Notes under the pieces: generated by a model
Databases searched by the model: none
Told to the model about the DNA's origin: nothing
The model's input: only the letters and a program-made list of their open reading frames with translations
Origin: Parcubacteria group bacterium Gr01-1014_8
GTDB lineage: Bacteria > Patescibacteriota > Minisyncoccia > Phycocordibacterales > UBA2100
Reading direction: 5' to 3'
Assembly: GCA_007376385.1 (NCBI GenBank)
Contig: VMGC01000001.1
Location: 224,001-288,000 of the forward strand
Length of the DNA: 64,000 nucleotides
In this document: in pieces, positions 3,093 to 38,010 of the stretch
Numbering within the stretch: position 1 is the first letter of the stretch
Layout of the letters: the number at the start of each line of letters is the position of its first letter
Translations under genes and position numbers: made by a program

Positions 3093-3830
3093 ATGCGCGT
3101 TGGCTCGGTCGGTATCATTGGGTACGGTAATTTTGGCGCGTTTTTACACGTGCTATTGAAGCGTTTTGCGCCGCAGATCACCGTCCGCGTCTTCACGCCA
3201 GAAAAGAAACCAGATGGCGCCACATTCTTTTCGATGGAAGAAGCGGCTGTGTCAGACGTTGTTGTGCTTGCTGTTCCTATCAGCGAATTTGAGAACGTAT
3301 TGGAGGATGTATTGCCACACGTCAAAGAGACCAGTGTCATCGTGGATGTCGCCACCGTGAAAATGCATACCGCAGATGTGCTCAAGCGGCTCGCGCCACA
3401 TAGGTCATATATTGCAACTCATCCGATATTCGGGCCCGAGAGCTATGCAAAACGGGAGGGGAACGTATCCGGTTTCAGAGTCGTCATTACGGACCATACC
3501 CTGTCAAAAGATGTGTACAAGGCTACTGTATCGTTCTTAAGGAAAACAGGTTTTGCGGTCATTGAAGTGAGCGCGGATGAACATGATAAACGCTTGGCAC
3601 AAACGCTCTTCTTGACACATTTTATCGGGCAAACCATCACTGAAGCAGAATTTGACAGAACTGACATCGACTCGGTTTCATTCGGATTTCTGATGGATGC
3701 TGTAGAGAGCGTTAAGCACGACAAGCAATTATTTCAAGATGTCTATCGCTACAACCCGCACTGCAAGGCGACATTGGACCGGTTTGAAAAGGCAGAAGCA
3801 AACGTGCGCCGGATGCTCGATAAAAGCTAG
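3093..3830 (+). CDS. tyrA: Prephenate/arogenate dehydrogenase (TyrA family)
   Basis: N-terminal NAD-binding GIIGYGNFGAFL. Size and aromatic-pathway context fit the TyrA family. Confidence 0.6.
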   Translation: MRVGSVGIIGYGNFGAFLHVLLKRFAPQITVRVFTPEKKPDGATFFSMEEAAVSDVVVLAVPISEFENVLEDVLPHVKETSVIVDVATVKMHTADVLKRLAPHRSYIATHPIFGPESYAKREGNVSGFRVVITDHTLSKDVYKATVSFLRKTGFAVIEVSADEHDKRLAQTLFLTHFIGQTITEAEFDRTDIDSVSFGFLMDAVESVKHDKQLFQDVYRYNPHCKATLDRFEKAEANVRRMLDKS

Positions 3831-4969
3831 AGGTATTCGTCAATATTGTCTACGTTGATGCAAATACTGGCGCGCACATAGCGCTCACCGTTCGTCCCAT
3901 ATGCACTGCCAGGTGTAAAGAGCACTTGTTTTTCTTTGAGCAAGTCCATGCAAAAAGTCTCTGAATCTTTTGCCGAGTCAGGTATTTTCGCCCAAATATA
4001 GAGGCTTCCTTTCGGGATTTCCAAGATGAGCCCCAGTTTTTTCATTTTCTCAGCGATGACATCACGGCGTTTTTGATAGGAAGAAAGCATTGCCGCGTGC
4101 CACTTTTCGTCACGATTATTCAGGGCGTATGCGCCGAGGAGTTGCAAGGGAAGCGACATGCCGGAATCCATTTGCGACTTCACCTTCTGCATAGCCGCAA
4201 TGATGTCTTTATTTCCAACTATCCAGCCCATCCGGAAACCTGCAAACGAGAACGTCTTTGAAAATGATCCTATTTCGACGCAATGTTCTTTTGCGCCTGC
4301 AACCTGAAGAATACTCGGCGCGACGAACCCATCGAATGTTATTTCTGCGTATGCGTTGTCATAAATAATTGGGAGGTCGTGCTTTTTTGAGAACGCCGTG
4401 ATTTCTTTGAGCTCATCGAGCGATGCAACGGCTCCGGTCGGGTTTCCGGGGAAATTCACCCACATGTATTTTGTTTTGTTCGTGATTTGCCTTGCAACAG
4501 AATCAAACATCGGCTTGAAATCATGTTCTGGCAGCAAGTCGTAATAATTGGAAGTAACTCCGAACATTGGACCTGGTTCGCTGAAAGGGGGATATCCAGG
4601 GTTCGGCGCCAGTACGTTGTCGCCTTCGTCTGCCAAGGCAAGAGGTAAGTGGCTAATCCCATCTTTACCGCCCAGTAGCGGCAGCACTTCATCATCCTCG
4701 AGCACAACATCGAATCGTTTCTTGTACCATGCTCGCACTGCATCATTGAATTCTTTGACGCCTTTATATCCGGGGTAGAGATGCGCTTTTGGGTCCCGGA
4801 CAAACTCAAAGAATTTCTGGATATACTTCTCACTCGGTGGAAAATCTGGGCTTCCCGGACCGAAGTTCAAGACTTTTCTCGCAGTCGCTTTTTCAGTTTC
4901 TACTACAGCTCTATTTAGTCTCGAAAAGATGTATTCAGGAAACTTCTCGACACGGTTCGCGATTCTCAT
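3827..4969 (-). CDS. Class I/II PLP-dependent aminotransferase (candidate aromatic/aspartate aminotransferase)
   Basis: SFSKTFSFAGFRMGW PLP-lysine region and NPGNPTG-like motif (NFPGNPTG). It overlaps the chorismate mutase gene upstream on the same strand. Confidence 0.75.
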   Translation of the reverse strand: MRIANRVEKFPEYIFSRLNRAVVETEKATARKVLNFGPGSPDFPPSEKYIQKFFEFVRDPKAHLYPGYKGVKEFNDAVRAWYKKRFDVVLEDDEVLPLLGGKDGISHLPLALADEGDNVLAPNPGYPPFSEPGPMFGVTSNYYDLLPEHDFKPMFDSVARQITNKTKYMWVNFPGNPTGAVASLDELKEITAFSKKHDLPIIYDNAYAEITFDGFVAPSILQVAGAKEHCVEIGSFSKTFSFAGFRMGWIVGNKDIIAAMQKVKSQMDSGMSLPLQLLGAYALNNRDEKWHAAMLSSYQKRRDVIAEKMKKLGLILEIPKGSLYIWAKIPDSAKDSETFCMDLLKEKQVLFTPGSAYGTNGERYVRASICINVDNIDEYL

Positions 4970-5244
4970 AGTTTTATGTTCTTTTGGATTGCGACGGAGT
5001 TTTTGTGGATCCTAGAGAAGATCTCATTTGCGAGTTTTGTCGATATCTTCATCGCTTTCGCCATGGCGATCCGTGATTTTATGAGCTGCGTTTTTCGTGT
5101 CTTATCGAGCGCTCTCATTCCTTTCTCGAGCTTATATTTGCCTATCACTTTCGAGAGCTTAGCCCGCTTTGCGAGCGCAGAAAGGATAATGGTGTCCACG
5201 GTGTCTATCTCTTTTCTCAGGCTTTCCAGTTCTTTCTTCTGCAT
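4966..5244 (-). CDS. Chorismate mutase (AroQ class)
   Basis: 92 aa. LRKEIDTVDTIILSALAKRAKLSKVIGKYK is the AroQ helix-1 signature. Its stop overlaps the start of the aminotransferase. Confidence 0.7.
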   Translation of the reverse strand: MQKKELESLRKEIDTVDTIILSALAKRAKLSKVIGKYKLEKGMRALDKTRKTQLIKSRIAMAKAMKISTKLANEIFSRIHKNSVAIQKNIKL

Positions 5245-5284
5245 AGTTCAGAATGTAGCGTATTTGGGGGCTTTTGTCGCGCCT

Positions 5285-5570
5285 ACGTTGACAGAGGGAA
5301 GAAATGGGGTAGAGTCTGGTGAGTTAAAGCTGTTCAGGTCCCGTCCGCCAGTTGGCGGAGGGGGTTGGGCCTGGATTCCTTAAGTGGGAAAGTGGTCATT
5401 GCGTAAGTGGTGACTCGGACTCCTCCGTAATCAGGATAACTGATGTCCACCAGCTGGCGGAGTCAGCGAAAGTCCGCCTCTGGCGGAAAAGTAAGGTGGC
5501 ACCGTGTCGAGAGACGCCCTTACATCGTAACGAATAGTTGCGGCGTGAGGGCGTTTTTTATTAGAAACTG
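5285..5570 (+). promoter_or_regulatory. Candidate T-box leader (Trp-specific) upstream of trpE
   Basis: AAGUAAGGUGGCACCGUGU at about 5488-5507 matches the T-box core AGGGUGGNACCGCG with N=C (it would pair with the G73 discriminator of tRNA-Trp). UGG triplets occur in the putative stem I (GAAAUGGGG at about 5300). A terminator hairpin GACGCCC...GGGCGU plus a U6 run ends at 5569. The position in front of the trp operon fits. Confidence 0.45.
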
Positions 5571-5702
5571 TCCAAAAAAGTCCAATTGCGTCGTTGCGAG
5601 CTGTGGTACTCCCTCACAATACGTCATGTATTGTTCGGTTCGTTCCTCGCTCGCGCCTAGCATTCGGAGCTTTTTGAAACAGTTTCGGGGCATCAGAACA
5701 GC

Positions 5703-7049
5703 ATGAAAATTCCAAAAATAAAATTAGGGCAAAAACCGACTTACGTGAAGATCGCGGAGGATGTGGATTTCTTTGATTTGTTCAAAAAGGTGGAAGAGCA
5801 TTTTGAAACGTGCTTTATTTTCGAATCACTCGGAGAAGAGGGAAAATTCTCTCGCTATTCCATTATCGGTTTCGATCCAGCTCACGTGGTATCTGCCCGC
5901 GAGAAGATACTTACATTTGATGGCGAACGATACGATGTAGAAAATCCATACGCTGCTTTGAGGCAGATCATGCCGAGGCAAACCATTGCGCGGAATTACG
6001 CAGGGGGGCTCATCGGGTATTTAAGCTACGAGGCAGTGAACTATTTTGAGCCGAAGGTTTCGGTGAAGGTTCATGATTCATTCGAGCAATTCATGTTCGG
6101 CGTTTATTTAGACGGGCTCATACTGGACAAACTTACGAACGAGCTTTTTTACTTTTACTATGACAATGATAGAAGCGGCACTCTTAAGGAAGTAATGCAT
6201 AGAGTTCCCAATAAGAAATCGTTCACAGCGGAATTTATTAAGGATGGTCTCACCCAGAAAGAACATGCGACGATAGTAGAGCGCGTCAAAGAACATATTC
6301 GAGCGGGAAATACGTTCCAGTGCGAGGTCGGTTTCAAGAGCGCGTACAAGGTAGGTGGGGACGTTGTCGCTATTTACGAGAAGTTGCGGGATGTAAATCC
6401 TTCTCCTTTTATGTATCATCTCAAGTTCGGGGCAAAACACATCATCGGGGCAAGTCCCGAGCTTTTATTTTCTCTTCGAGACGGTGAAATGACGACGCGT
6501 CCTCTTGCGGGAACTATTCGTCGCGGAAGGGATGACAAAGAGGACCAGCTGCTCGCAAGAAAGCTTCTTAGCGATCCCAAAGAGCGAGCGGAGCATACGA
6601 TGCTCGTTGATATGCATCGGAATGACATCGGGCGTGTTGCGAGGTTTGGCACCGTCCGCGTCAAAGATCTGATGACAGTCAAGAAGTTTAGCCACGTACA
6701 GCACATGTCGAGCGAAGTCGTCGGCGTCATACGGCCGGGCGAGGACATGTTCTCGGGGCTCCAGAGCAATTTTCCAATGGGAACGATTTGCGGCACGCCG
6801 AAAGTGGAGACGCTGAAGATAATAGATGCAAATGAGCCTGAAGCGCGCGGACCGTATGGTGGAGGCGTTGGGCATTTTGGATTCAACGGTGACTGCACAT
6901 TCGCGCTTACACTTCGTTCAGTATTCATACACAACTCCAACGCATATACGCAGACATGCGGCGGAATCGTGTACGACTCGACACCGGAGAATGAATATGA
7001 GGAAATTCAAAGAAAATCAGCTGCGATGAAAAAAGTACTTGGCGTATGA
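5703..7049 (+). CDS. trpE: Anthranilate synthase component I
   Basis: 448 aa. Chorismate-binding domain (LAGTIRRGRD..., GTICGTPK, PYGGGVGHFGFNGD). Confidence 0.9.
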   Translation: MKIPKIKLGQKPTYVKIAEDVDFFDLFKKVEEHFETCFIFESLGEEGKFSRYSIIGFDPAHVVSAREKILTFDGERYDVENPYAALRQIMPRQTIARNYAGGLIGYLSYEAVNYFEPKVSVKVHDSFEQFMFGVYLDGLILDKLTNELFYFYYDNDRSGTLKEVMHRVPNKKSFTAEFIKDGLTQKEHATIVERVKEHIRAGNTFQCEVGFKSAYKVGGDVVAIYEKLRDVNPSPFMYHLKFGAKHIIGASPELLFSLRDGEMTTRPLAGTIRRGRDDKEDQLLARKLLSDPKERAEHTMLVDMHRNDIGRVARFGTVRVKDLMTVKKFSHVQHMSSEVVGVIRPGEDMFSGLQSNFPMGTICGTPKVETLKIIDANEPEARGPYGGGVGHFGFNGDCTFALTLRSVFIHNSNAYTQTCGGIVYDSTPENEYEEIQRKSAAMKKVLGV

Positions 7050-7642
7050 AAATACTTATCATAGATAATTACGATTCGTTCACCTACAACCTCTATCAAC
7101 TGGTGGGGGAAATTTTGAAAGCAGAACAAGGAGATTTCACTATTGATGTTGTGCGCAACGATGAGATAACCCTCGATGAAATACAAAGGCGCGCGTACGA
7201 CAGAATAATCATCTCCCCAGGGCCAGGTGACCCGAGTGACAAACACTATTTTGGTGTGTGTGCCGATGTCATCTTGCATGTTGGCAAAAAGACGCCAATT
7301 CTCGGTGTGTGCCTTGGAATGCAAGGAATTGCGCACTATTTTGGCGGGAAGGTTGTTCGCGCAAAAGTACCGATGCATGGCAAGACAAGTGAAATAGAGC
7401 ACGATGAAAAAGGTGTCTTTGCAGGACTTCCGCAGGGTCTCGAAGTCATGCGTTACCACTCGTTGGTGGCGGAAAAAGAATCACTGCCTAGTTCGCTTGT
7501 CGTCACATCAACGGCGAAAGATTCTGGTGAGATAATGGGACTTCGCCATGTGAAATATCCGATAGAAGGTATTCAATTCCATCCAGAGTCATTTGCAACA
7601 GAAGGAGGAAAAAGACTTCTGGAAAATTTCTTGAAGGTATGA
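7046..7642 (+). CDS. trpG: Anthranilate synthase component II (glutamine amidotransferase)
   Basis: Class I GATase (GVCLGMQ, HPES). Start overlaps the trpE stop. Confidence 0.85.
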   Translation: MKILIIDNYDSFTYNLYQLVGEILKAEQGDFTIDVVRNDEITLDEIQRRAYDRIIISPGPGDPSDKHYFGVCADVILHVGKKTPILGVCLGMQGIAHYFGGKVVRAKVPMHGKTSEIEHDEKGVFAGLPQGLEVMRYHSLVAEKESLPSSLVVTSTAKDSGEIMGLRHVKYPIEGIQFHPESFATEGGKRLLENFLKV

Positions 7643-8649
7643 TACTGGACTTATTAAAGAAACTCGTTGAGAAAAAAGACCTGACTGTTTCGGAGTCGGA
7701 GCAATTCCTATTGGAAGTGATGAAAGGGGGAGTGAGCCCGACATGTATCGCAAGTATTCTCGTTGCACTGCGAATGAAAGGCGAGTCAGTTGATGAGATA
7801 GTCGGATTCCTCCGCGCGATGCGCGCGAACATGCTGAAAGTGAATGCGCCGGACGCGATTGATATCGTAGGAACCGGTGGGGACGGAAGCGGCACGTTCA
7901 ATATCTCGACTACCGCGGCTTTTGTGGTTGCAGGGGTGGGAGTAAAAGTGGCAAAGCACGGTAACCGTGCGGCAAGCAGCAAGTGCGGAAGCGCGGATGT
8001 TTTGGAAGCACTTGGCGTGAATATTCAGCTTACGAAGGAACAGGCGGAAGAAGTGTTTAAAAATGTCGGGCTCGTCTTTATGATGGCGCCTCTGTATCAC
8101 CCCGCGATGAAAGAGGTTGCCGCCGTCAGAGAAGAATTAAAGATACGAACTGTTTTTAATGTCCTAGGTCCATTCGCGAACCCTGCTTCGACGCAAACAC
8201 AATTAACTGGTGTTCCGAATAAGGCCATCGCAAAGAAATTGGCGGAGGTCGGCAAGCGGCTTGGCTACAAACGACTTCTCGTTGTCTCGAGCAATGATGG
8301 GATGGACGAGATAAGTTTGTCGTCAAAGACACATATGTTCGATGTCTATCGCGGCAAAGTAAAGAAATCGCTTATCGACCCGAAAAGATATGGATTCAAG
8401 CGCTCATCCAAGAAAGATATTCTTGGTGGGGATGCAACCGAGAACGCAGCTATTATCCGAGCGATTTTGAGTGGTGGAAGCGGGGCACAGCGTGACGTCG
8501 TTGTCTTTAACAGCGCGTTCGCGCTCTATGCTGCTGGCGCAGCCGCTTCAATTCAAGAGGGAATAGAGAAAGCTAAGCAGTCTATTGATAGCGGCAGCGC
8601 GCTTCGCGTATTAGAGTCATTGATACGGGAGACACAGAACTTCGCGTAA
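7639..8649 (+). CDS. trpD: Anthranilate phosphoribosyltransferase
   Basis: GTGGDGSGTFNISTTAAFVVAG and KHGNRAASSKCGSADVLEALG motifs. Confidence 0.9.
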   Translation: MILDLLKKLVEKKDLTVSESEQFLLEVMKGGVSPTCIASILVALRMKGESVDEIVGFLRAMRANMLKVNAPDAIDIVGTGGDGSGTFNISTTAAFVVAGVGVKVAKHGNRAASSKCGSADVLEALGVNIQLTKEQAEEVFKNVGLVFMMAPLYHPAMKEVAAVREELKIRTVFNVLGPFANPASTQTQLTGVPNKAIAKKLAEVGKRLGYKRLLVVSSNDGMDEISLSSKTHMFDVYRGKVKKSLIDPKRYGFKRSSKKDILGGDATENAAIIRAILSGGSGAQRDVVVFNSAFALYAAGAAASIQEGIEKAKQSIDSGSALRVLESLIRETQNFA

Positions 8650-8656
8650 CTAACCT

Positions 8657-9937
8657 ATGATCAGTGTTCAACTACAGCCGCTAACTGGCCCCGCCAATAC
8701 GAGCGTCGATATACCCGGCTCTAAAAGCTATACAAACCGCGCACTCCTCATGGCGACGATGTGCCGTGAGGCTGTTCGGATCCTTAAACCGCTGGTGAGT
8801 GACGACACGAGGGCGATGCTCAACTGTTTAAAGACTCTTGGTATCAAGGTTGAGGAAAAGAGCGACGAGATAACGGTGATAGGGCATATAACGGACGTGA
8901 AGAATCAGGACTACGAACTTGATGCCGACCTCTCAGGCACAACGATTCGATTTATGCTCGCCCTTTCATGTGTTTTGCCCGGTGTTCAAACATTGGTTGG
9001 AAAAGAAGGTCTCAACAAGCGCCCTATCAAGGATCTCGTTGATGGTCTTAGACAGCTCGGTGCAAAGATAGAATACCTTGAAAAAGAAGGCTTTCCGCCT
9101 CTTCGAGTTTCTTCGTATGAATTGAATCCCGGGACTATCCGCCTGAAGGGAGGGGTAAGCAGTCAATTTTTGTCTGCCATTTTGATGATTGTTCCGCAGG
9201 TGGGGGATGTCACGCTCGAGGTCGAGGGTGAGCAAATATCAAAGCCCTACATAGACATGACAATAGATACTATGTCGCGCTTCGGTGTATCAGTTGCTAA
9301 TTTGAACTACCAGCGGTACCGCGTCTCGGTTGGACAGGTCTACCAAGGTACTGAATATACGGTCGAAGGGGACGTTTCGAGCGCTTCGTACTTCGCTGCG
9401 ATTGCCGCGCTCACGAAGTCTCGCATAACGCTCGCGAACATGAATCCGCAGTCCGTGCAGGCTGACATGCATTTTTTTCACATTCTTGAGGACATGGGCG
9501 CGTCTGTCAGCTATGAGAAAGACAGAATAGTCGTGGTGGGAAATGGCGTGATGCCAATGGAAGTAGATATGGAAAATTGTCCCGACCAGGCTCAAACAAT
9601 GGCGGTTCTCTCTGCGTTTGCTCCGGGCGTAACGAAACTTTCTGGGGTGCGCTCGCTTCGTCTGAAAGAGACAGAAAGGGTGAAAGCGCTTGAAGCGGAG
9701 CTTGCGAAGATGGGCATCAAGACCGAATCAACTGAAGATATGCTCACGATATACGGAGGTTCGCCAAAAGCCGCAGCAATAGACACCTACGGCGACCACA
9801 GGATGGCAATGTCTTTCGCGGTTGCGGGGGCAATGCTTGATGGCATGCAAATAAACGATTTCGGCGTTGTAGGAAAGACATTTCCTCAATTTTGGGAGAA
9901 ACTCGAATCAATTGGAGTCGGAGTAAAAAGGGTATGA
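8657..9937 (+). CDS. aroA: 3-phosphoshikimate 1-carboxyvinyltransferase (EPSP synthase)
   Basis: GSKSYTNRALLMA, LNKRPI and DHRMAMSFAVAG motifs. Embedded inside the trp gene string. Confidence 0.9.
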   Translation: MISVQLQPLTGPANTSVDIPGSKSYTNRALLMATMCREAVRILKPLVSDDTRAMLNCLKTLGIKVEEKSDEITVIGHITDVKNQDYELDADLSGTTIRFMLALSCVLPGVQTLVGKEGLNKRPIKDLVDGLRQLGAKIEYLEKEGFPPLRVSSYELNPGTIRLKGGVSSQFLSAILMIVPQVGDVTLEVEGEQISKPYIDMTIDTMSRFGVSVANLNYQRYRVSVGQVYQGTEYTVEGDVSSASYFAAIAALTKSRITLANMNPQSVQADMHFFHILEDMGASVSYEKDRIVVVGNGVMPMEVDMENCPDQAQTMAVLSAFAPGVTKLSGVRSLRLKETERVKALEAELAKMGIKTESTEDMLTIYGGSPKAAAIDTYGDHRMAMSFAVAGAMLDGMQINDFGVVGKTFPQFWEKLESIGVGVKRV

Positions 9938-10458
9938 ATATCGTACTCATCGGAATGCGCGGGAGCGGTAAATCGACTGTTGCAAAAATGCTTGCGAAGA
10001 AGCTTGGCCGGAAATATATGGAATTGGACGACGAGATAGCCAAAAAAGCCGGCGCGCGCATCTCTGAAGTCGTGGAGCAGCAGGGTTGGAATTATTTCCG
10101 CGTGAGAGAAGCGGAGGTAGTCGAAGAAGCTGCTGCAGTAGACAATACGGTCATCTCCACCGGGGGTGGTGTTGTCTTGCAGAGTAAAAACGTTCAAGCA
10201 TTGAAGAAAAACGGTATCTGTATCTTTTTAAGCGCGCCAATCGAGGAACTGCTTCCACGCATTGGTGAATCGTCTACCAGACCGCGGCTTACAGGTGCAA
10301 AGACGATGAAAGAGGAATTGGAGAAAGTATGGGAAGAGCGCAAGCCGTTGTACGAAAAAGCAGCGGACGAGACTATTGATACTACAGGCATGAAACCGAA
10401 AGATATTGCCGAGGAAATAGTGCAGAGACTTAAAAAGAAGCATATAGTGCAAATCTGA
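9934..10458 (+). CDS. aroK: Shikimate kinase
   Basis: MNIVLIGMRGSGKSTVAKMLAKKLG P-loop. ATG 9934 overlaps the aroA stop (ATGA). The listed ORF from 9892 is an in-frame upstream extension. Confidence 0.85.
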   Translation: MNIVLIGMRGSGKSTVAKMLAKKLGRKYMELDDEIAKKAGARISEVVEQQGWNYFRVREAEVVEEAAAVDNTVISTGGGVVLQSKNVQALKKNGICIFLSAPIEELLPRIGESSTRPRLTGAKTMKEELEKVWEERKPLYEKAADETIDTTGMKPKDIAEEIVQRLKKKHIVQI

Positions 10459-10459
10459 T

Positions 10460-11542
10460 ATGGCAGGAAATTCATTCGGACAACTTTTTAGAATAACGAC
10501 ATTTGGTGAATCGCACGGCGGGGCTGTTGGGGTTGTACTGGATGGATGTCCGCCGGGGATTCAAATAACCGAAGAAGAAATCCAAATTCAGCTCGACCGT
10601 CGGAAGCCGGGGCAAAGTCATATCACGACGTCTCGCAAAGAGGCAGATAAAATAAAGATACTTTCTGGCTACTATGAGGGAAAAACGACTGGGACACCGA
10701 TACTTCTTATCGCATACAACGAAGATGCTAAGTCGGGGGATTACAAGGAACTGATGAAAGCGTACCGCCCGTCGCATGCAGATTACACGTACGAAGCAAA
10801 ATACGGCTTCCGCGATTGGCGTGGAAGCGGCCGCGCTTCGGCGCGCGAGACGCTTGCGCGCGTAGCAGCCGCGGCGATTGCACAGAAATATCTACAAGAA
10901 AAAGAGGGAATTGAGTGCCTGAGTTTCGTTGAACAAGTCGGCGACATCAAGGCGGATGTTGATGTTGAGAAAGTGCAGATGAAAGACATAGAATCCAACA
11001 TCATTCGATGTCCCGACCAGAAAGTGGCGGAGAAGATGATCGCGCTTGTTGAGAAAACGAAAGCAGAGGGTGATTCCATCGGCGGTATCATTCAGGGTGT
11101 TATTCGTGGCGTGCCAGCGGGCCTAGGCGAGCCGGTATTCGATAAAATTCCTGCTGACCTTGCGAAAGCAATGTTAAGCATCAATGCAGTCAAGGGATTC
11201 GAAATGGGGCTTGGGTTTCGAAGCGTCGGCATGAAAGGAAGTCAGCACAACGACCCGATGGAAATCCGTGATGGGAAAATTCGGACGAAAAAGAATGACG
11301 CCGGAGGCACATATGGTGGCATTTCAAGCGGCGAAACGATTCATTTCCGCGTTGCGTTCAAACCTGTCTCAACTATTGCAAAAGAGCAGGACACTGTCAC
11401 AACTGAAAAGAAGGCAACAAAACTTGCAGCCGCCGGTCGCCACGACCCGTGCGTCCTCCCCCGCGCCGTCCCCATCGTCGACGCCATGTCCGCGCTCGTC
11501 ATCATGGATCACTATCTTCGCAACAAGGCGCAAAATAAGTAG
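10460..11542 (+). CDS. aroC: Chorismate synthase
   Basis: FGESHGGAVGVVLDGCPPG N-terminus and GRHDPCV motif. Confidence 0.9.
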   Translation: MAGNSFGQLFRITTFGESHGGAVGVVLDGCPPGIQITEEEIQIQLDRRKPGQSHITTSRKEADKIKILSGYYEGKTTGTPILLIAYNEDAKSGDYKELMKAYRPSHADYTYEAKYGFRDWRGSGRASARETLARVAAAAIAQKYLQEKEGIECLSFVEQVGDIKADVDVEKVQMKDIESNIIRCPDQKVAEKMIALVEKTKAEGDSIGGIIQGVIRGVPAGLGEPVFDKIPADLAKAMLSINAVKGFEMGLGFRSVGMKGSQHNDPMEIRDGKIRTKKNDAGGTYGGISSGETIHFRVAFKPVSTIAKEQDTVTTEKKATKLAAAGRHDPCVLPRAVPIVDAMSALVIMDHYLRNKAQNK

Positions 11543-11554
11543 TACAATTTCCGA

Positions 11555-12058
11555 ATGAGCATGGAAGGCGGACCAAAACCTAGGAAAGGAATTCTTTCTG
11601 GTTTACAGAGATGGCTTGAACAACGAAAAGAACGAATAACGCTTGAAGAGGTAAGAGATCACTTGAGCTTTAATCTGTGGAAAACAGCCGATGCGGTGTG
11701 CACAGAAATCTTGGAAAATCGATTAGCGCAAGGCCGCACAGCTCCTAAATACACGAAGCTTAATCTCGATCGATCAAATTACTCTGAGTGGCAGTCGTAT
11801 TTTGATATGCGTTCGAGAACATCGAACTTTTGCATCCGCTTGTTTTCGATGAGGGAAGCGGATGTTAAGCAAGAAAATGAACTTACAGATCAGGAAAGGC
11901 AATGGGCTCGAACAGGTCCATCAGATGACGATCGCAGAAAGACTTATTTTGCTAATACTGGACATCATATCCCGTATTTTCGGCTTGTTCGAGGAGGTAG
12001 TCGACGTCGTGTTGAACAAAGTGAAGGAGATTCGTCGCCGATTACGGTTAAATCTTAA
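11555..12058 (+). CDS. Hypothetical protein (167 aa) at the 3' end of the trp/aro gene string
   Basis: An ORF without recognisable motifs fills the gap between aroC and the convergent trpA. Confidence 0.35.
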   Translation: MSMEGGPKPRKGILSGLQRWLEQRKERITLEEVRDHLSFNLWKTADAVCTEILENRLAQGRTAPKYTKLNLDRSNYSEWQSYFDMRSRTSNFCIRLFSMREADVKQENELTDQERQWARTGPSDDDRRKTYFANTGHHIPYFRLVRGGSRRRVEQSEGDSSPITVKS

Positions 12059-12064
12059 TTTGAT

Positions 12065-12889
12065 CTATAATTTCAGTTGAGACATCGTTTTTTCCACCGC
12101 GGAAATCTTCTTGTTCTTCTTTAGGGCGACAACAAACACACTTCCTGCGATCACAATATCCGCTACTTTGGACAAATCTTTTACATCCTTTTTTGACTTA
12201 ACACCGAATCCAACGGCCACGGGAAGTTCAGAAGTGCTTCGCAGTGTTTTTATAAATGCGGGCAAATCGGACGCAAACACACTTGTTGCTCCGGTGATTC
12301 CTTGTCGCGTTGTGCAGTACCAGAACCCCGTTGCGTCTTTTGCGAGCGTTTCAAGGCGTTCCTTTGGAACGCCGGGGGATACAACAGGAATTAATGCAAT
12401 ACCAGCTGCCTTGCACGTCGCAAGCAGAGACCAGCCTTCCATCGTGTCGAACGGACAATCTGGAACAATTAATCCGACCGCCCCAGCGTTGGAGATGGTC
12501 TTGATGAATTTTGGGATGCCCATCCGGTAAATAGGGTTGGCGTAAGTCATCACAACGACCGGCTTCTTGAATTTCGCAACCTTTTTTACGACTTCTAGAG
12601 CTTTTTTGACTGTCGCGCCTTTCTTGAGCGCCTCTTCGCACGCGACCGCAATTGTTGGGCCATCAGCCATTGGGTCGGAGAAGGGGATTTGCACTTCGAT
12701 AATATCTGCTCCACCTTTGGCGAGTGCCTTTGCGACCTGGATGGATTCAGAAATCGTCGGAAGCCCCGCGATCATGTGCGCCATGAAAAGAGATTTTTTC
12801 CCTCTGTTTTCCAATAAAACCATCAAGGCGACGCCTTGATGGTTTTTCTCAATGGAAGTTGTCATTCTAGTCATAGCGGTTGTATTCAT
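12065..12889 (-). CDS. trpA: Tryptophan synthase alpha chain
   Basis: LIAGLPTISESIQVAKALAKGGADIIEVQIPFSDPMADGP matches the TrpA N-terminal region. The true start may be the internal Met at 12823, because the 12889 start overlaps trpB by 23 nt. Confidence 0.85.
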   Translation of the reverse strand: MNTTAMTRMTTSIEKNHQGVALMVLLENRGKKSLFMAHMIAGLPTISESIQVAKALAKGGADIIEVQIPFSDPMADGPTIAVACEEALKKGATVKKALEVVKKVAKFKKPVVVMTYANPIYRMGIPKFIKTISNAGAVGLIVPDCPFDTMEGWSLLATCKAAGIALIPVVSPGVPKERLETLAKDATGFWYCTTRQGITGATSVFASDLPAFIKTLRSTSELPVAVGFGVKSKKDVKDLSKVADIVIAGSVFVVALKKNKKISAVEKTMSQLKL

Positions 12890-14078
12890 CTTTGAGGAAG
12901 TCTCTGAAGCTTTTGTCTTTGAAGGCGCGGGCGAAGTTGAAAAGGTCTTTGTCGCCGCGGCCGGAGAGTGTAGCGACGATGATGTGATCCTTTTTCATTT
13001 TTGGGGCGATTTTTATCACATGTGCAAGTGCGTGCGCGCTCTCGAGCGCGGAAATTACTCCTTCGAGTTTCGCGAAGAAATCTACCGCCGCAACCGCTTC
13101 TGTATCCAGCGCATACGTAAGTTCCAAGCGCCCTTCTTGGTAGAGGTCTGCGAGTTCGGGACCAAGTCCTGGGTAATCGAGTCCGGCGGAAATAGAATGC
13201 GTGGGCGCAATTTGACCGTCGTCCGTCTGCAGAAAGAGAGATTTGTATCCCTGAAATATCCCCAACACTCCTGCTATTTTTCGGGATGCATGCTGTCCAA
13301 CCTTTTTTCCAATTCCTCCCGCCTCCACTCCTATCAATCGCACTGAAGATTCAGGCACAAAGTCATAAAAACTGCCGATGGCGTTTGAGCCTCCGCCGAC
13401 GCAGGCAACGACTACATCCGGGAGCTTGCCTTCGCGCTCCTGTAGTTCAGAACGAATTTCTCGTCCAATGATGGATTGGAAGTATCGGTTCATTTCGGGA
13501 TATGGTTTTGGGCCAAGCACGGAGCCGATGCAGTAATGCGCTTTCTCAAGATTTTCCATCCAGAATTTTAGCGCCTCGTTCACCGCGTCTTTCAGAGTCT
13601 TGCTTCCGTATTCAACGGGAATTACTTTCGCACCGAGTCGTTCCATCAAGAATACATTTGGTCTCTGGCGGCGTATGTCTTCGTTTCCCATGAATACTAC
13701 ACACTCAAGTCCTAGTTTTGCCGCTACCGTTGCTGTTGCGACGCCGTGTTGTCCTGCGCCAGTTTCTGCGATGAGCATCTTTTTGCCCAGTTTTTTCGCC
13801 AGGAGCCCTTGTCCGAGGCAGTGCGTTATCTTATGAGCACCAGTATGGTTTGCGCCCTCGTTCTTCAGATATATCTTCGCGCCGCCAAGTTTCTTCGTTG
13901 CCCGCTCTGCAAAAATGAGGGGAGTAGGACGGCCAGAAAAATTCTTTAAGAGGTCTCTGAATTCCTTTTGGAACTCGGGGTCTCTTTTTGCTTTCTCAAA
14001 TGCGGCGATAAGCTGCTGCAGGGTCTCCCATAGCATTTCGGGTATATATGCTCCGCCGAATGTCTCACGCTCTGTCAT
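12867..14078 (-). CDS. trpB: Tryptophan synthase beta chain
   Basis: HTGAHKITHCLGQ PLP-lysine motif and GGGSNAIG. Confidence 0.9.
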   Translation of the reverse strand: MTERETFGGAYIPEMLWETLQQLIAAFEKAKRDPEFQKEFRDLLKNFSGRPTPLIFAERATKKLGGAKIYLKNEGANHTGAHKITHCLGQGLLAKKLGKKMLIAETGAGQHGVATATVAAKLGLECVVFMGNEDIRRQRPNVFLMERLGAKVIPVEYGSKTLKDAVNEALKFWMENLEKAHYCIGSVLGPKPYPEMNRYFQSIIGREIRSELQEREGKLPDVVVACVGGGSNAIGSFYDFVPESSVRLIGVEAGGIGKKVGQHASRKIAGVLGIFQGYKSLFLQTDDGQIAPTHSISAGLDYPGLGPELADLYQEGRLELTYALDTEAVAAVDFFAKLEGVISALESAHALAHVIKIAPKMKKDHIIVATLSGRGDKDLFNFARAFKDKSFRDFLKDEYNRYD

Positions 14079-14863
14079 ATCATTGCTTTCTGAAGTTCTC
14101 GTATCTTCTCGAGGGGGTCATTAGACTCCAGAATCGCAGTTCCAACAAGGATTCCTCGGACGCCGGTTTTGCGAACACGAAGCACATCATCAGCCGTGTA
14201 AATTCCTGATTCACTCACGACGGGTATGTCTTTGGGGATGGAGTTCATCAGCGTTTCTGTTGTGCTGAGGTCTATTTCCATAGTTCGGAGGTTGCGGTTG
14301 TTGATGCCGATGAGTTTTGCATTCGCTTCTATCGCCTTTTTCACATCTTCTTCGTCGTGCACTTCAACGAGACTTCCGATGCCAAGCGATTCTCCAAGGG
14401 ATATGAGTTCAGCGAGCTTGTCTTTCTCAAGCACCGCTGCGATGAGAAGAAACGCATCGCCACCCCCGGCAAGTGTTTCGTAGACCTGGTATTCATCAAC
14501 GATAAAATCTTTTCTTAGAATTGCTTGCGGAACTTTTTCTCGCACGTGCTGCAACAATTCAAGACTCCCGCCGAAATATTTGTTGTCAGTAAGAACGGAA
14601 ATCGCGTCCGCTGCACTTTCGGCGTACAGTTCTGCAACTTTGAGCGGGGAATCGATGAGTTTACCGGCGGAAGGAGAGCGCGGCTTTATCTCTGCAATGA
14701 GAACGCTTGATCCGGGGTCGCTAAATCGCGAGCGAAATGGTCTCGCTTTTCGGTATTGTTTTTGCTCCGATATACGTGCTCGCAAGACCTCAAGCGGCAC
14801 TTTCTTCATCCTCTCTTCCAGTTCGGAGCGGGTATTAGATACTATTTCATCGAGTACTGTCAT
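14075..14863 (-). CDS. trpC: Indole-3-glycerol phosphate synthase
   Basis: IAEIKPRSPS motif and IGINNRNL. Its stop overlaps the trpB start. Confidence 0.85.
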   Translation of the reverse strand: MTVLDEIVSNTRSELEERMKKVPLEVLRARISEQKQYRKARPFRSRFSDPGSSVLIAEIKPRSPSAGKLIDSPLKVAELYAESAADAISVLTDNKYFGGSLELLQHVREKVPQAILRKDFIVDEYQVYETLAGGGDAFLLIAAVLEKDKLAELISLGESLGIGSLVEVHDEEDVKKAIEANAKLIGINNRNLRTMEIDLSTTETLMNSIPKDIPVVSESGIYTADDVLRVRKTGVRGILVGTAILESNDPLEKIRELQKAMI

Positions 14864-14935
14864 GCTCGGCTATTATAGTGATTATCACGAATTTACCTAG
14901 CGTTTTAGCCCTTTGCAGTCTACGATGGAGCATTC

Positions 14936-15574
14936 ATGGTTAAGGTGAAGATCTGCGGCAATACGAGCAAGGAAACTGCGCTTGCCGCGCTTTCGTATGG
15001 TGCAGATATGCTTGGATTCATTGTGAATGTTTCTGGATCAAAGACTTCCATAACGCCAGAGCAGGCGCGTGAAATTATTTCTGCGCTGCCGTCTGGCGAG
15101 ACTGTGGTGGTTACAACTGCAACAGATGCTCAGGAAATAAAAAGACTTGCACAGGAAACTGGCGTTTCAACAATTCAATACCATGGTGAAGTGTCACCGG
15201 AGACAATTGCAAAGATAAAAGATGAGCTACCGAATATCGCCGCGTGGAAAGTAATCCATGTGAAAGATGAGAGTGCGATTGATGAAGCAAGGAAATATGA
15301 AAGTATCGTAGACGCGATACTTTTGGACACAGCACAGGGCGGCCAAATCGGCGGAACTGGTACTACGCATGACTGGAATATTAGCCGCATAATTGCAGGT
15401 GATTATTCCAAACCGATCATCTTGGCCGGGGGACTGAATCCAGACAATGTGGAGGAAGCAATACGGGTCGTGAAGCCCTATGCGGTAGACGTGAACTCCG
15501 GTGTTACTAACTCGGATGGCTCAAAGGACCTTGAAAAAGTGAAGCTTTTCATAGAACGTGCAAAGGGCAAATGA
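14936..15574 (+). CDS. trpF: Phosphoribosylanthranilate isomerase
   Basis: MVKVKICGNTSKETALAALSYGADMLGFIV N-terminus, and AGGLNPDNV. Confidence 0.85.
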   Translation: MVKVKICGNTSKETALAALSYGADMLGFIVNVSGSKTSITPEQAREIISALPSGETVVVTTATDAQEIKRLAQETGVSTIQYHGEVSPETIAKIKDELPNIAAWKVIHVKDESAIDEARKYESIVDAILLDTAQGGQIGGTGTTHDWNISRIIAGDYSKPIILAGGLNPDNVEEAIRVVKPYAVDVNSGVTNSDGSKDLEKVKLFIERAKGK

Positions 15575-15619: not shown

Positions 15620-16340
15620 GTCCTGAACTACCGACCTCGGTGGTTTTTTTGACCCTCCTGTGAGGAGGGACAGAAGGCTTGAACTTTGACAACTGAATAT
15701 GAAAAATTGTACGCAAAACCAAAAAAGAAATTGGTAAGTAAAATTGTTGCCGGCGCTCGCTCGGAATTGAAAATTTATTTTCATTTCGCTCGCTCGCATG
15801 GGCAATAAGAATTCTTGTTGTTCTCAAGTTAGGAACAATAAGACACACACAAAAGCAAGAAAACAGAAAATACATATTGAGGTTCCAGGAGGATCTCATG
15901 TGTAAGTAAACAGTAATAACGAGACAAAAGATCCCCCAAGGGGACTGCGACTTTCTACGATTCAAATGAATCGTGAAAGTCGGGAGATATACATTCTTTT
16001 GTTTCGTCCATCCTAGAGATATTGAAGCAATTCAAATTCTTGAAAGTGGTGTAAAAACCATTTTTACTTAGAGTTTGATCCTAGCTCAGGGTGAATGCTG
16101 GCGGTATGGATAAGGCATGCAAGTCGAATGGGTTAGACCCATGGCAGACGAGGTAGTAACAGGTAGGTACGTCCCCGGAAGTCGGGCATAACCAGCCGAA
16201 AGGTTGGATAATTCCCGATGGTCTCGCAAGAGTAAAGATTTATCGCTTCCGGAGCGGCCTGCTTTGTATCAGCTTGTTGGTGAGGTAACGGCTCACCAAG
16301 GCTATGACGCATAGGGGACCTGAGAGGGTGACCCCCACCG

Positions 16341-16377
<37 letters not shown>

Positions 16378-16891
16378 TGCAGCCGAGAATATTCGACAAT
16401 GGGCGAAAGCCTGATCGAGCGATACCGCGTGGTGGATGAAGCGCTTCGGCGCGTAAACACCTTTTATGAGGGAAGAAATTTTGACGGTACCTCATGAATA
16501 AGGGGCTCCTAACTCTGTGCCAGCAGGAGCGGTAATACAGAGGCCCCAAGCATTACCCGGAATTACTGGGCGTAAAGGGTGCGTAGGTGGTCATATTAGT
16601 CGCCTGTTAAAACCCACGGCTCAACTGTGGAACCGCGGGCGAAACGGTATGACTAGAGAGAGTGAGAGGTGAATGGAACTCATGGTGTAGGGGTGAAATC
16701 CGTTGATATCATGGGGAACACCGAAAGCGAAGGCAATTCACTGGCACTTTTCTGACACTCAAGCACGAAAGCGTGGGTAGCGAACGGGATTAGATACCCC
16801 GGTAGTCCACGCCCTAAACGATGATCGCTGGATTTGGGGAGTATCGACCCTCTCCGAGTCGAAGCTAACGCGTTAAGCGATCCGCCTGGGT

Positions 16892-16923
<32 letters not shown>

Positions 16924-17390
16924 AGACGGGGGCTTGCACAAGTGGTGGAGCGTGTGGCTCAATTCGTCGCTAAGCGAAGAACCTTACCAGGGCTAGAAAT
17001 CCAGCTGCATACTTTGGGAAACCTTAGTAGCCTTCGAGGGTGCTGGACAGGTGATGCATGGCTGTCGTCAGTTCGTGGTTTGAATCGTTCCCTTCAGTGG
17101 GGTAACGAACGCAACCCTCGTTGCCTGTTATATTTGTCAGGCGAGACTGCCCCCTCACGGGGGAGGAAGGTGAGGATGACGCCAAGTCAGCATGTCCCTC
17201 TGATGTCCTGGGCTGCACACGCGCTACAATCGCCGTTACAACGAGGCGCAACGTCGTAAGACCGAGCAAATCTTTCAAAAGCGGCGCCAGTTCGGATTGA
17301 GGTCTGCAACCCGACCTCATGAAGCCGGAATCACTAGTAATCGCGGGTCAGCCACACCGCGGTGAATACGTTCTCAAGCCTTGTACTCAC

Positions 17391-18234
17391 AATAAAAGCG
17401 CACAGCAGTGTACATATCTATGCGGTTAAAATCCGCACCTCTCTTTCGTACAGAGAGCGTAGCAGAAGGATAGTTGTTATCCGCGAGGATGATAATGGAG
17501 GATCCTAATGCAAAGAGCAGCCATTTCGCACAAAAGCCGACCGACCTGTCAATGGGTGGTGAGGATAGGGAAGGTCCTAGAAAGGCAAGAAAATGGATGC
17601 CTAGAACAGATACGCACATAACCTGTGGAGATCTGACGCTGTTATCCCAAAGATGGGATATGATGAATCTGACGCAGCGTCAGAAGTCAGCTGAGTCATA
17701 GTATTTGCAGATATGCAAAAAAGGACTCACTCAAAGCAAAATCTTAGTCCAGATTATGTTGTTGGACTCGTAGATGGTGAAGGAAGCTTTACTGTCTACG
17801 TAAGAAATCCAGACATAGAGAAAAAAGTCGCTCGAAGAGTGGTTGTAGAGCCAAAATTCTACATAAAACTAATCGAACGCGACAAAGATATTCTCTATGC
17901 ACTTCGAGATTTCTTCGGATGTGGAAGTATTTACTTCCAAAAAGATAATCGTCCGAATCATCAACATTGCTATCGTTACGAGGTCTTCCGGTGGGAAGAA
18001 CTTCAAACGATAATCATTCCGTTCTTCAAGCGGCACGTTCTCAAATTCGCGTCAAAACGGCACGACTTTGAAGTGTTTTGCATGATGATGGAGCTTCTCA
18101 AAAAAGAAGCACATCGAACGGAAAAAGGACTACGAGAGTTGTTTAAGTTGAAACAACGCATGCATTGAGCTCGCGTAGTGCGGGAAATCCGCTCGCTACG
18201 TGGGAACATCAATTCTTAGATTCAAGAAGATAAT
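17391..18234 (+). mobile_element. Intervening sequence (intron) in the 16S rRNA near E. coli position ~1390-1400, carrying a homing endonuclease gene
   Basis: The 16S collinearity breaks after CCTTGTACTCAC (17390) and resumes at CGCCCGTCAACTC (18235). The 844-nt insert contains the LAGLIDADG ORF. Confidence 0.6.
17713..18168 (+). CDS. LAGLIDADG homing endonuclease (single-motif type), intron-encoded
   Basis: 151 aa. VVGLVDGEGSF is a LAGLIDADG motif. The gene lies entirely inside the 16S insertion. Confidence 0.8.
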   Translation: MQKRTHSKQNLSPDYVVGLVDGEGSFTVYVRNPDIEKKVARRVVVEPKFYIKLIERDKDILYALRDFFGCGSIYFQKDNRPNHQHCYRYEVFRWEELQTIIIPFFKRHVLKFASKRHDFEVFCMMMELLKKEAHRTEKGLRELFKLKQRMH

Positions 18235-37082: not shown

Positions 37083-37098
37083 GTAATCTAGTAAATTA

Positions 37099-37644
37099 TT
37101 AATACCCCTTCTTGTATCTCCACTCGATTGAATCTCCCGAAGAAACTTTCGCCGTCGACGCCCCTGTATTTGCAGTTTTTCCATTTACGTAAAGAATCCA
37201 GTAATACCCGTTGTCGCTCCGTAGTCCGTTAATTTCTTCTACCATCACGCCGAGACCGGGGAACTCTTTCGTCTTGAATTCGAAATGTGACTTTTTCGCA
37301 AATTCTTCCATTGCTGCGAGCACTGTTCCTGATTCTTTTGCAGCGAATGTGTAGGACGTTTGGTCGTGTTGCGGGTCGGCAACAGTCGTTGCGGTCTCGA
37401 TTTTTTCAGGAGTTGAAGTAGGACGTACCTTGCTCGAACTCGTTTCGGCCATATCAACCTCGTAGGTCGAAATAGTCGTGGTTGCTGGATTGGGGATGTT
37501 TCTGGTGTCCGAGGTCGAACCTAGAGCATTGGAGTCCGATTTCGGGGAATAAATCGTATACGTCGTTGAGCCTGCGCCAAACGCAGTAAGAACCGTCACG
37601 ATCATCGCTACGAGTATTCCGGCGCTTAGATACATTTTTTTCAT
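37099..37644 (-). CDS. Small secreted DUF4430-like protein
   Basis: ATG at 37644 (MKKMYLSAGILVAMIVTVLTAFGAG signal/TM). The C-terminal domain YWILYVNGKTANTGASTAKVSSGDSIEWRY fits the DUF4430 pattern. Lies directly upstream of the large paralog on the same strand. Confidence 0.6.
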   Translation of the reverse strand: MKKMYLSAGILVAMIVTVLTAFGAGSTTYTIYSPKSDSNALGSTSDTRNIPNPATTTISTYEVDMAETSSSKVRPTSTPEKIETATTVADPQHDQTSYTFAAKESGTVLAAMEEFAKKSHFEFKTKEFPGLGVMVEEINGLRSDNGYYWILYVNGKTANTGASTAKVSSGDSIEWRYKKGY

Positions 37645-37799
37645 ATAAAAAAATCCGCGCCGAGCGGAGAAGGTGAGTAACATTGGTGTATGCACCAACT
37701 TCCTGCTCGGGATATGAGCGTGTCCGCAAACCTCATTCCCGCTGCGCTGCACTCAATCGGGCTACAACTCGTGTCTCGGACTCAATGTGCCACCGGCAC

Positions 37800-38010
37800 A
37801 CTTCGTCCTCCGACACTTCGTCTCGCCTCGATTGCGTGCCGCTCGCTTCAGGAAGCAGGTTTTCGGACCCACTCTTCAGTTGTTTGACGACCGGACTCGT
37901 TTCGCCAAACTGGCGAACATTACCGTTGCGGCACAGTGCGGGGATGTAACCCGACTTCCACAAACAACTGTAGAAAGGAGTGTACTCCAATGCGTGAACA
38001 GTGCAATGTG
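37800..38010 (-). promoter_or_regulatory. Cobalamin-riboswitch-like motifs in the 460-nt leader of the DUF4430 operon (tentative)
   Basis: The minus strand reads GGAAGUCGGGUUACAUCCCCGCACUGUGCCGCAACGGUAAUG. CGCAACGGUAA resembles the conserved CGCAGCGGUAAG core, and there is a GGAA..C.GGU.A.AUCC segment. A second GCGCAGCGGGAAUGAGG lies nearer the start codon. No clean B12-box GCCACUG is present. Confidence 0.25.

Follow-up and report, generated by a model that had tools for sequence, protein, structure and literature searches.

A probable tRNA-Trp T-box riboswitch combining a short Stem I with an intrinsic terminator upstream of trpE in a Parcubacteria genome

Canonical class I tryptophan T-boxes, such as the leaders of trp operons and the rtpA-ycbK leader of Bacillus subtilis, are known from the Firmicutes and are represented by Rfam family RF00230. 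The trpX T-box of Streptococcus suis (PMC9382623) is a further example. These elements combine a UGG specifier with a seven-nucleotide UGGNACC bulge between the helices A1 and A2 of an antiterminator, an intrinsic terminator with a U-run that is exclusive with this antiterminator, a Stem II, a Stem IIA/B with an F-box, and a Stem III, and they stand before tryptophan genes. The same features are found in a leader upstream of trpE in a stretch of 64,000 nucleotides (the window; all positions refer to it, and to its plus strand unless the minus strand is named) from Parcubacteria group bacterium Gr01-1014_8, a member of the Candidate Phyla Radiation (CPR). The TrpE encoded here shares 100% identity with a protein from this organism, whose name is present in the NCBI taxonomy, and its close relatives all come from metagenome-assembled genomes of Patescibacteria, in agreement with the CPR-like character that an earlier, sequence-only reading had ascribed to the genome. 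The same reading proposed a tryptophan-specific T-box in front of trpE. We conclude that the leader is very probably a transcription-attenuating tRNA-Trp T-box riboswitch controlling trpE-trpG-trpD-aroA-aroK-aroC. The proposal is supported, with the specifier relocated to UGG 5366-5368, and it withstood three attempts at refutation, namely the search for a T-box covariance-model match, for a Stem I that folds with a UGG specifier, and for a terminator that overlaps the T-box sequence.

Unlike the canonical class I elements, the leader belongs to a CPR host and has a short Stem I without the AG bulge and distal loop, the interdigitated double T-loop motif (IDTM), that stack on the tRNA elbow. 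In the type of leader found in the window (Type A, defined below) the base of Stem I lacks the GA motif and kink-turn (K-turn) consensus and instead forms a junction of the helices P1, P1a, and P1c; the specifier lies in a pure 3'-side bulge without S-turn nucleotides on the 5' side; and Stem II is short, with a UGC-NNNR-GUG top where the canonical form has GAA/AGUA. A truncated, IDTM-less Stem I is shared with the ileS T-boxes of Actinobacteria (Mycobacterium tuberculosis, M. smegmatis, and Nocardia farcinica). According to Sherwood et al. 2015, as summarised in PMC7583486, the intermediate ileS form carries its specifier in a side bulge, similar to Type A, and the ultrashort form, an arrangement described for Mycobacterium ileS, carries it in an apical loop, similar to the Type B leaders described below. 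In the same account, Stem II and Stem IIA/B directly follow Stem I, presumably compensating for the elbow contact, and the bulge and the A1/A2 core are the same as here. However, the ileS T-boxes, again according to that summary, sequester a Shine-Dalgarno sequence and act on translation, whereas the leader described here has an intrinsic terminator; they read AUC (Ile), control an aminoacyl-tRNA synthetase gene, occur in another phylum, and retain both a K-turn and, in Stem II, an S-turn with a string of five purines, neither of which is recognised in Type A. The glyQS T-boxes of Bacillus, Geobacillus, and Oceanobacillus are transcriptional, follow the same antiterminator/terminator logic, and have the UGGN bulge, but they illustrate the opposite simplification, lacking Stem II and Stem IIA/B while keeping a long Stem I with the IDTM; among T-boxes, only those for Gly are devoid of Stem IIA/B.

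Relatives of the leader were gathered as trpE upstream regions via TrpE homologues. Upstream of trpE, GGUGGNACC is present at 19 distinct loci, the window and 18 others (L037 by eye), whose leaders comprise 13 of Type A (window, L001, L002, L005, L011, L022, L025, L026, L029, L031, L032, L033, and L034) and six of Type B (L003, L013, L014, L019, L028, and L037). The secondary-structure elements, their conservation and covariation, the mutually exclusive 3' folds, and the gene context were all established computationally. The window's leader extends from about 5322 to 5559 and is organised as a promoter, a decoding domain, an antiterminator, and a terminator; the RNA from 5322 to 5562 folds with -111.7 kcal/mol (z = -6.6 against shuffled sequence). 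This organisation is more than chance because of the Rfam E-values given below, its recurrence at the 18 other loci, the z-score, and covariation above that of shuffled and slid controls. The compensatory changes in particular point to selection on RNA pairing.

The near-consensus T-box core that had been noticed about 200 nt upstream of trpE is AAGGUGGCACCGUG at 5493-5506, with its 5' end 210 nt and its 3' end 197 nt upstream of the trpE ATG. It is embedded in an antiterminator at 5492-5522 with a minimum free energy (MFE) of -7.7 kcal/mol for the isolated segment. Helix A1 pairs UAAGG (5492-5496) with CCUUA (5518-5522), helix A2 pairs GUGUC (5504-5508) with GACGC (5513-5517) around a GAGA loop, and the seven-nucleotide T-box bulge UGGCACC (5497-5503) between them offers UGGC (5497-5500) for pairing with the 3'-GCCA of a tRNA. 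Among 16 aligned leaders, 99.2% of the antiterminator cells are paired, compared with 27-60% when the strands are slid, and compensatory changes occur in all but one of the five A2 pairs. The terminator hairpin and U-run that had been noted after the core were also recovered, as a long interrupted hairpin at 5509-5559 (-32.7 kcal/mol) that forms an intrinsic terminator with six U residues at 5554-5559. A simple terminator scanner made no call at 5509-5559, where the loop and the inner stem exceed the limits of the scanner; folding resolved the hairpin. Terminator and antiterminator have 14 nt in common (5509-5522), which makes them mutually exclusive. The overlap and the U-run are found in 18 of the 18 leaders analysed, with 9-18 nt in common and terminators of -26 to -58 kcal/mol.

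An alternative explanation is that the 3' hairpin is a sequestrator of the ribosome-binding site, and that the leader is a translational (class II-like) T-box comparable to the actinobacterial ileS elements with their short Stem I. Translational T-boxes with a short Stem I that lacks the IDTM are on record, and intermediate and ultrashort forms are assigned to this group, mostly from Actinobacteria (PMC7583486; PMC11297988); moreover, most of the relatives have a distance of only 8-18 nt between the end of the hairpin and the trpE start. However, in all 18 leaders a long G+C-rich stem is immediately followed by a run of four to seven U residues, the hairpin in the window ends 143 nt before the ATG and so cannot occlude the start region, and inspection of the relatives by eye revealed no Shine-Dalgarno-like sequence in the 3' strand at a suitable distance. 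Because the U-run directly follows the G+C-rich stem in every leader and the window's hairpin is so far from the ATG, we regard the output as transcriptional and a translational switch as highly unlikely.

The fourth base of the T-box bulge is C in 15 leaders (C5500 in the window) and U in three (L026, L032, and L033), and both bases are able to pair with a G at position 73 of the tRNA (G73). The UGGU bulges (L026:239-269, L032:918-946, and L033:922-950) all belong to Type A leaders and would form a U-G wobble with G73, compared with a C-G pair elsewhere. In bacterial tRNA-Trp, the discriminator base G73 is a major identity element (PMC12135181). The pairing of UGGC with a G73 tRNA-Trp acceptor end, as originally proposed, would be possible with the G73 that is general for bacterial tRNA-Trp.

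The decoding domain is supported by an alignment of the 13 Type A leaders made with MAFFT (alignment A1), on which the structure was written and whose helices are given here in window coordinates. In this 5' domain, 95.2% of 476 cells hold standard pairs, a share that drops to 33-52% once the 3' partners are displaced by one to three columns; changes on both sides, i.e., compensatory changes, are present in 23 of 38 pairs; and the covariation score is 0.49, compared with at most 0.147 in the slid controls. None of 500 shuffles reached the observed value on any of these measures. Every helix of the domain contains compensatory changes except for the invariant three base pairs of Stem IIA. Covariation across the 13 leaders supports a Stem I (5329-5393) of the intermediate type, the form in which the specifier lies in a side bulge (PMC7583486). 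It consists of the base helix P1 (5329-5331/5391-5393; 97% of cells paired, compensatory changes in two of three pairs), P1a (5332-5339/5369-5376; 97%, five of eight pairs), the distal hairpin P1b (5340-5363; 94%, six of seven pairs), and the optional side hairpin P1c (5377-5389; 77%, three of four pairs). P1b is free in sequence and in length, ranging from 4 bp and a tetraloop to about 14 bp (10 bp and a tetraloop in the window); in L002, L022, and L033 it has only 4 bp with a GAAA or GUAA loop.

Between the covarying helix below and this variable distal hairpin above lies a five-nucleotide bulge on the 3' side, GUUGG at 5364-5368, followed by G5369 (the whole site, 5364-5369, conforms to RYUGG and then G). 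The specifier codon is UGG 5366-5368, and the purine after it, G5369 of the closing pair U5339-G5369, is invariant; the complete UGGG is the same in every one of the 13 Type A leaders. In a test independent of the alignment, the five bulge nucleotides were forced to be unpaired and the energy was compared with the MFE. The fold with the unpaired bulge is the unconstrained MFE structure in seven of the 13 leaders and lies 0.2-2.3 kcal/mol above the MFE in the other six. A Stem I presenting UGG can thus be folded and is supported by covariation, although it is not the canonical long form.

UGG triplets had been noted in the putative specifier region, and nine are indeed present in 5322-5559. Since about six are expected from base composition, their presence alone is uninformative, and only 5366-5368 is conserved as a specifier (5497-5499 is part of the T-box bulge). 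We rejected UGG 5385, which lies at the loop-stem edge of the variable P1c and is not conserved; for the P1c loop, L002 has AUCA and L001 has CGCA, and L022 and L029 lack P1c altogether. UGG 5393 was also rejected; it spans the P1/Stem II junction and reads UGA in L001, L025, and L029 and GCG in L005. One could nevertheless assume that the T-box reads another codon and another tRNA, with its specifier at UGG 5385 or 5393 or at a non-Trp codon. The nine triplets provide candidates, UGG 5385 falls into the P1c loop region of the window, and G73 is carried by several tRNAs besides tRNA-Trp. If this were the case, then the specifier would reside either in a loop that varies and can be lost together with its hairpin, or at a junction that reads other triplets in four leaders, while the sole invariant is the UGGG of the bulge. 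Furthermore, the Type B leaders independently show UGG followed by A, and the operon makes tryptophan. A different codon or tRNA is therefore the least likely of the alternatives that we weighed, and is hardly plausible.

The independent support for the UGG specifier comes from a second architecture. In the Type B leaders, which come from other CPR-like metagenome-assembled genomes (L003:2760-2990, L013:1255-1490, L014:365-680, L019:620-870, L028:985-1175, and L037:770-900), an ultrashort Stem I of 4-5 bp is enclosed by a K-turn-like GCGAUGA...GGAGC, and the apical loop of this stem, 9-10 nt long, always contains UUGGA, that is, UGG followed by A. A different Stem II region follows, and then the same UGGC antiterminator and terminator. 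At L037-L040, all with Type B leaders, the called trpE start falls inside the leader, and hence the 5' end of the gene is mis-called.

Other relatives have a different arrangement in front of trpE. The Magasanikbacteria loci L006, L017, and L018 lack GGUGGNACC upstream of trpE, and L006 has no Rfam T-box match either. In L027 (811-1200), whose TrpE is 78% identical, the region upstream of trpE contains a divergently transcribed gene of the Trp-repressor family (PF01371) instead of a T-box, suggesting an exchange between RNA switch and protein repressor within the clade. In L035 and L036 (1-900 in both), trpE begins 13 nt after a gene for a class Ib aminoacyl-tRNA synthetase (PF00579, TrpRS or TyrRS family), and any leader would lie upstream of the synthetase gene. 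The lineage of these two loci is labelled as Pacebacteria and is widespread, with protein P0020 present on many contigs.

Stem II (GGUCAUUGC-GUAA-GUGGUGACU, 5394-5415) has 97% of its cells paired and compensatory changes in five of nine pairs, and Rfam aligns it to the Stem II of its own model. Its top is an invariant module, UGC-NNNR-GUG, with invariant U-G, G-U, and C-G pairs. At 5399-5410 (columns 106-108 and 136-138 of alignment A1) the tandem U-G/G-U and the C-G close a four-nucleotide loop, which an insertion enlarges in L001 and L034. The invariance of the tandem wobble pairs suggests a specific tertiary or metal-binding role, and the module may stand in for the S-turn that is canonical in Stem II; in the Rfam alignment, AGUG is placed on AGUA and GAA is deleted. 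Stem IIA (5416-5427) consists of three invariant base pairs between CGG (5416-5418) and CCG (5425-5427). An F-box-like CCGUAA (5425-5430) is located within Stem IIA/B (5416-5436), as expected from the F-box belonging to the IIA/B pseudoknot (PMC7583486). The pseudoknot helix IIB pairs UCCU (5421-5424) with AGGA (5433-5436) and forms completely (100% of cells) in each of the 13 leaders; L022 carries a double compensatory change, having UCUC/GAGA compared with UCCU/AGGA in the others. A hairpin of the MFE fold, UCAGGAUAACUGA (5431-5443), was rejected because the AGGA within it is the conserved IIB strand. Further downstream follow a linker hairpin (5440-5466), with a hairpin at this position in all Type A leaders as judged by eye, and Stem III (5473-5487), in which UCCGCC and GGCGGA enclose UCU and which Rfam aligns to its Stem III; several Type A leaders, again by eye, have no second hairpin. 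The region of the two hairpins (5440-5487) is flanked by the purine runs GAAAG and AAAAG.

A default Rfam scan of the window at gathering thresholds reported no T-box. In a permissive scan of 561 nt of intergenic sequence, RF00230 gave a full-length match at 5324-5524 (model positions 1-219; 29.0 bits, E = 1.3e-4), and in the permissive scan of the whole window this was the sole T-box-like match (E = 0.015). A covariance-model match, by which the proposal was to be judged, was thus found, but at 29 bits it is below the gathering score of 93. Stems II, IIA, and III together with the antiterminator contribute the score; most of Stem I, 87 positions of the model, is skipped. Matches below threshold are also present upstream of trpE in relatives (48.7 bits in L005, 30.4 in L002, and 25.7 in L001). 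A covariance model built from the Type A 5' domain (R1; 119 positions, 34 pairs) gives 82-124 bits for the 13 leaders on which it was trained, as expected by construction; it found no second copy in the 64-kb window and detected none of the Type B leaders.

Several observations weigh against a functional tRNA-Trp T-box. The RF00230 score of 29 bits is under one third of the gathering score, and the R1 scores for the Type A leaders come from the training set only. No tRNA-Trp gene is present in the window, whose only tRNA genes are those for tRNA-Ile and tRNA-Leu, or in the 27 loci, which contain no tRNA gene of any kind. Stem I has no IDTM platform, only the plain P1b hairpin above the specifier, and the IDTM has been called essential for transcriptional T-boxes, for the kinetics of co-transcriptional sensing (PMC7583486). 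By sequence inspection of alignment A1, no K-turn consensus (GA motif, GCGAUGA...GGAGC) is found at the base of the Type A Stem I, and the GAA/AGUA S-turn that is canonical in Stem II is not apparent. Finally, the GG of the specifier could, as judged by eye, instead form pairs with the CC or CU at the opening of P1b; such a pairing might modulate the accessibility of the specifier. The absence of the AG-bulge/distal-loop platform follows from the plain hairpin above the specifier, which is reduced to as little as 4 bp and a tetraloop and cannot form a double T-loop platform. At the K-turn site, the P1/P1a/P1c junction has no tandem G-A beside a three-nucleotide bulge on either strand.

With the IDTM, the K-turn consensus, and the canonical S-turn missing, the leader could be a decayed relic, i.e., a constitutive partial terminator derived from a T-box, or an element that has come under the control of a protein or a small ligand. 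CPR genomes are reduced, and the replacement of the T-box by a divergent TrpR-family gene in L027 would be compatible with such a decay. However, two clade-wide architectures keep all of their pairings through compensatory changes, and UGG, UGGN, the F-box-like sequence, and the overlap of antiterminator and terminator are invariant, which points to purifying selection on precisely those parts that would read a tRNA. Neither a TRAP-like (G/U)AG array nor a leader peptide with Trp codons, or any Trp-rich leader open reading frame (ORF), is found in the leader. We consider a relic very improbable, though the least improbable of the rival explanations, and retain the interpretation of the leader as a tRNA-Trp T-box.

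Transcription of the leader would begin at a sigma-70-like promoter, TTGACA-16-TAGAGT at 5288-5315, identified as a consensus match (10 of 12 positions); one promoter-type site was found, compared with 0.4 expected in shuffles. The start is predicted near 5322, a few nucleotides 5' of the first helix, and in L002 and L013, by eye, the leader is likewise immediately preceded on its 5' side by similar promoter-like hexamers. From the homology with characterised T-boxes, we infer tRNA binding, sensing of tRNA charge, and the regulatory outcome as follows. The nascent leader would fold into a decoding module made of the intermediate Stem I, with UGG 5366-5368 in its five-nucleotide side bulge, followed by Stem II and Stem IIA/B. 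The CCA anticodon of tRNA-Trp would pair with UGG 5366-5368, and because Stem I lacks an elbow-binding platform, Stem II and Stem IIA/B would be expected to supply the extra affinity, as in the actinobacterial ileS T-boxes. If the tRNA is uncharged, its 3'-GCCA would pair with UGGC 5497-5500 and stabilise the weak antiterminator (-7.7 kcal/mol), which would permit read-through into trpE. If the tRNA is charged or absent, 5509-5522 would join the terminator (-32.7 kcal/mol), and transcription would stop at the six U residues (5554-5559).

We place the leader in a CPR subclass of transcriptional T-boxes with an intermediate or ultrashort Stem I that score below the Rfam threshold. On balance, we lean towards the view that the CPR/Patescibacteria have their own lineage of terminating T-boxes that have two specifier architectures and no elbow platform and that, in the case of Type A, lack a recognisable K-turn as well. 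The combination of a short Stem I with an intrinsic terminator was not found described in the T-box literature that we searched. A full-text search for T-box or riboswitch together with Candidate Phyla Radiation, Patescibacteria, or Parcubacteria returned nothing relevant; subscription journals are mostly outside its coverage, and novelty is unproven. The database TBDB gathered its class I T-boxes with the Rfam model and ran a short-Stem-I model on Actinobacteria and on class I matches with truncated Stem I only (PMC7778990); judging from this construction, leaders that score 26-49 bits are unlikely to be listed there.

If the predicted function holds, then these leaders contradict the current generalisation, by which a transcriptional T-box depends on the IDTM to capture the tRNA quickly during transcription. 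The occurrence of short Stem I's before strong terminators in 19 distinct loci would make this kinetic argument testable with natural sequences. Similarly, whether any T-box works without a K-turn is a question posed in PMC7583486, for which Type A would provide a natural test. T-box regulation would extend to the CPR, where regulatory RNAs are barely charted and amino-acid biosynthesis is unusual, and CPR T-boxes would be systematically under-annotated, as such leaders are missed by RF00230 and probably by TBDB. Their annotation would need a dedicated covariance model, and the same may apply to CPR T-boxes with other specifiers.

The leader is located in a 458-nt gap (5245-5702) that separates trpE from a divergent gene for chorismate mutase (4966-5244, minus strand). 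The genes downstream of it, assigned by Pfam, are trpE (5703-7049, with the ATG at 5703; Chorismate_bind, 4.7e-80, and Anth_synt_I_N), trpG (7046-7642), trpD (7639-8649), aroA (8657-9937), aroK (9892-10458), and aroC (10460-11542). These genes (5703-11542) overlap or are tightly spaced and are probably co-transcribed. The remaining trp genes are arranged differently, with trpC-trpB-trpA on the opposite strand and converging, and trpF alone. Together they form part of an aromatic amino-acid cluster at 3093-15574 that is unusually complete for a CPR genome and contains prephenate dehydrogenase, an aminotransferase, chorismate mutase, trpE/G/D, aroA, aroK, aroC, trpA/B/C, and trpF. Among the genes of this cluster, only the trpE-aroC arm is preceded by a T-box. 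Between trpC and trpF, a gap of 72 nt contains no recognisable leader, and a 167-aa ORF at 11555-12058 has no Pfam match.

The 143-nt spacer between the T-box terminator and the trpE ATG (5560-5702) is peculiar to this genome; elsewhere the distance is 8-53 nt in 16 of 17 other leaders and 313 nt in L005. The spacer contains a 17-nt imperfect inverted repeat (arms at 5564-5580 and 5670-5686) and folds as a single long hairpin (-45.1 kcal/mol, z = -3.1). The sequence of the repeat arms has no other occurrence in the window. A 26-codon ORF in the spacer (5627-5706) overlaps the trpE start through ATGA and contains no Trp codons. The spacer could be an insertion or an additional RNA element.

Elsewhere in the window, a full-length match to the adenosylcobalamin (AdoCbl, cobalamin) riboswitch RF01482 at 37852-37981 (minus strand) scores 48.7 bits (E = 7e-6), close to the gathering score of 50. 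The gene directly downstream of this match encodes a 217-aa DUF4430 protein (37099-37752, minus strand) and is followed by a gene for a 939-aa protein with DUF4430 repeats (34365-37184, minus strand); the match is probably a genuine B12 riboswitch below the default threshold. In the region 16063-17726, the 16S rRNA gene spans all 1533 positions of its model within only 1360 nt, and several of its helices are shortened. A match to domains 1-4 of a group II intron (RF01998, 42.3 bits) is located at 17639-17726, about 217 nt downstream from the 3' end of the 16S gene.

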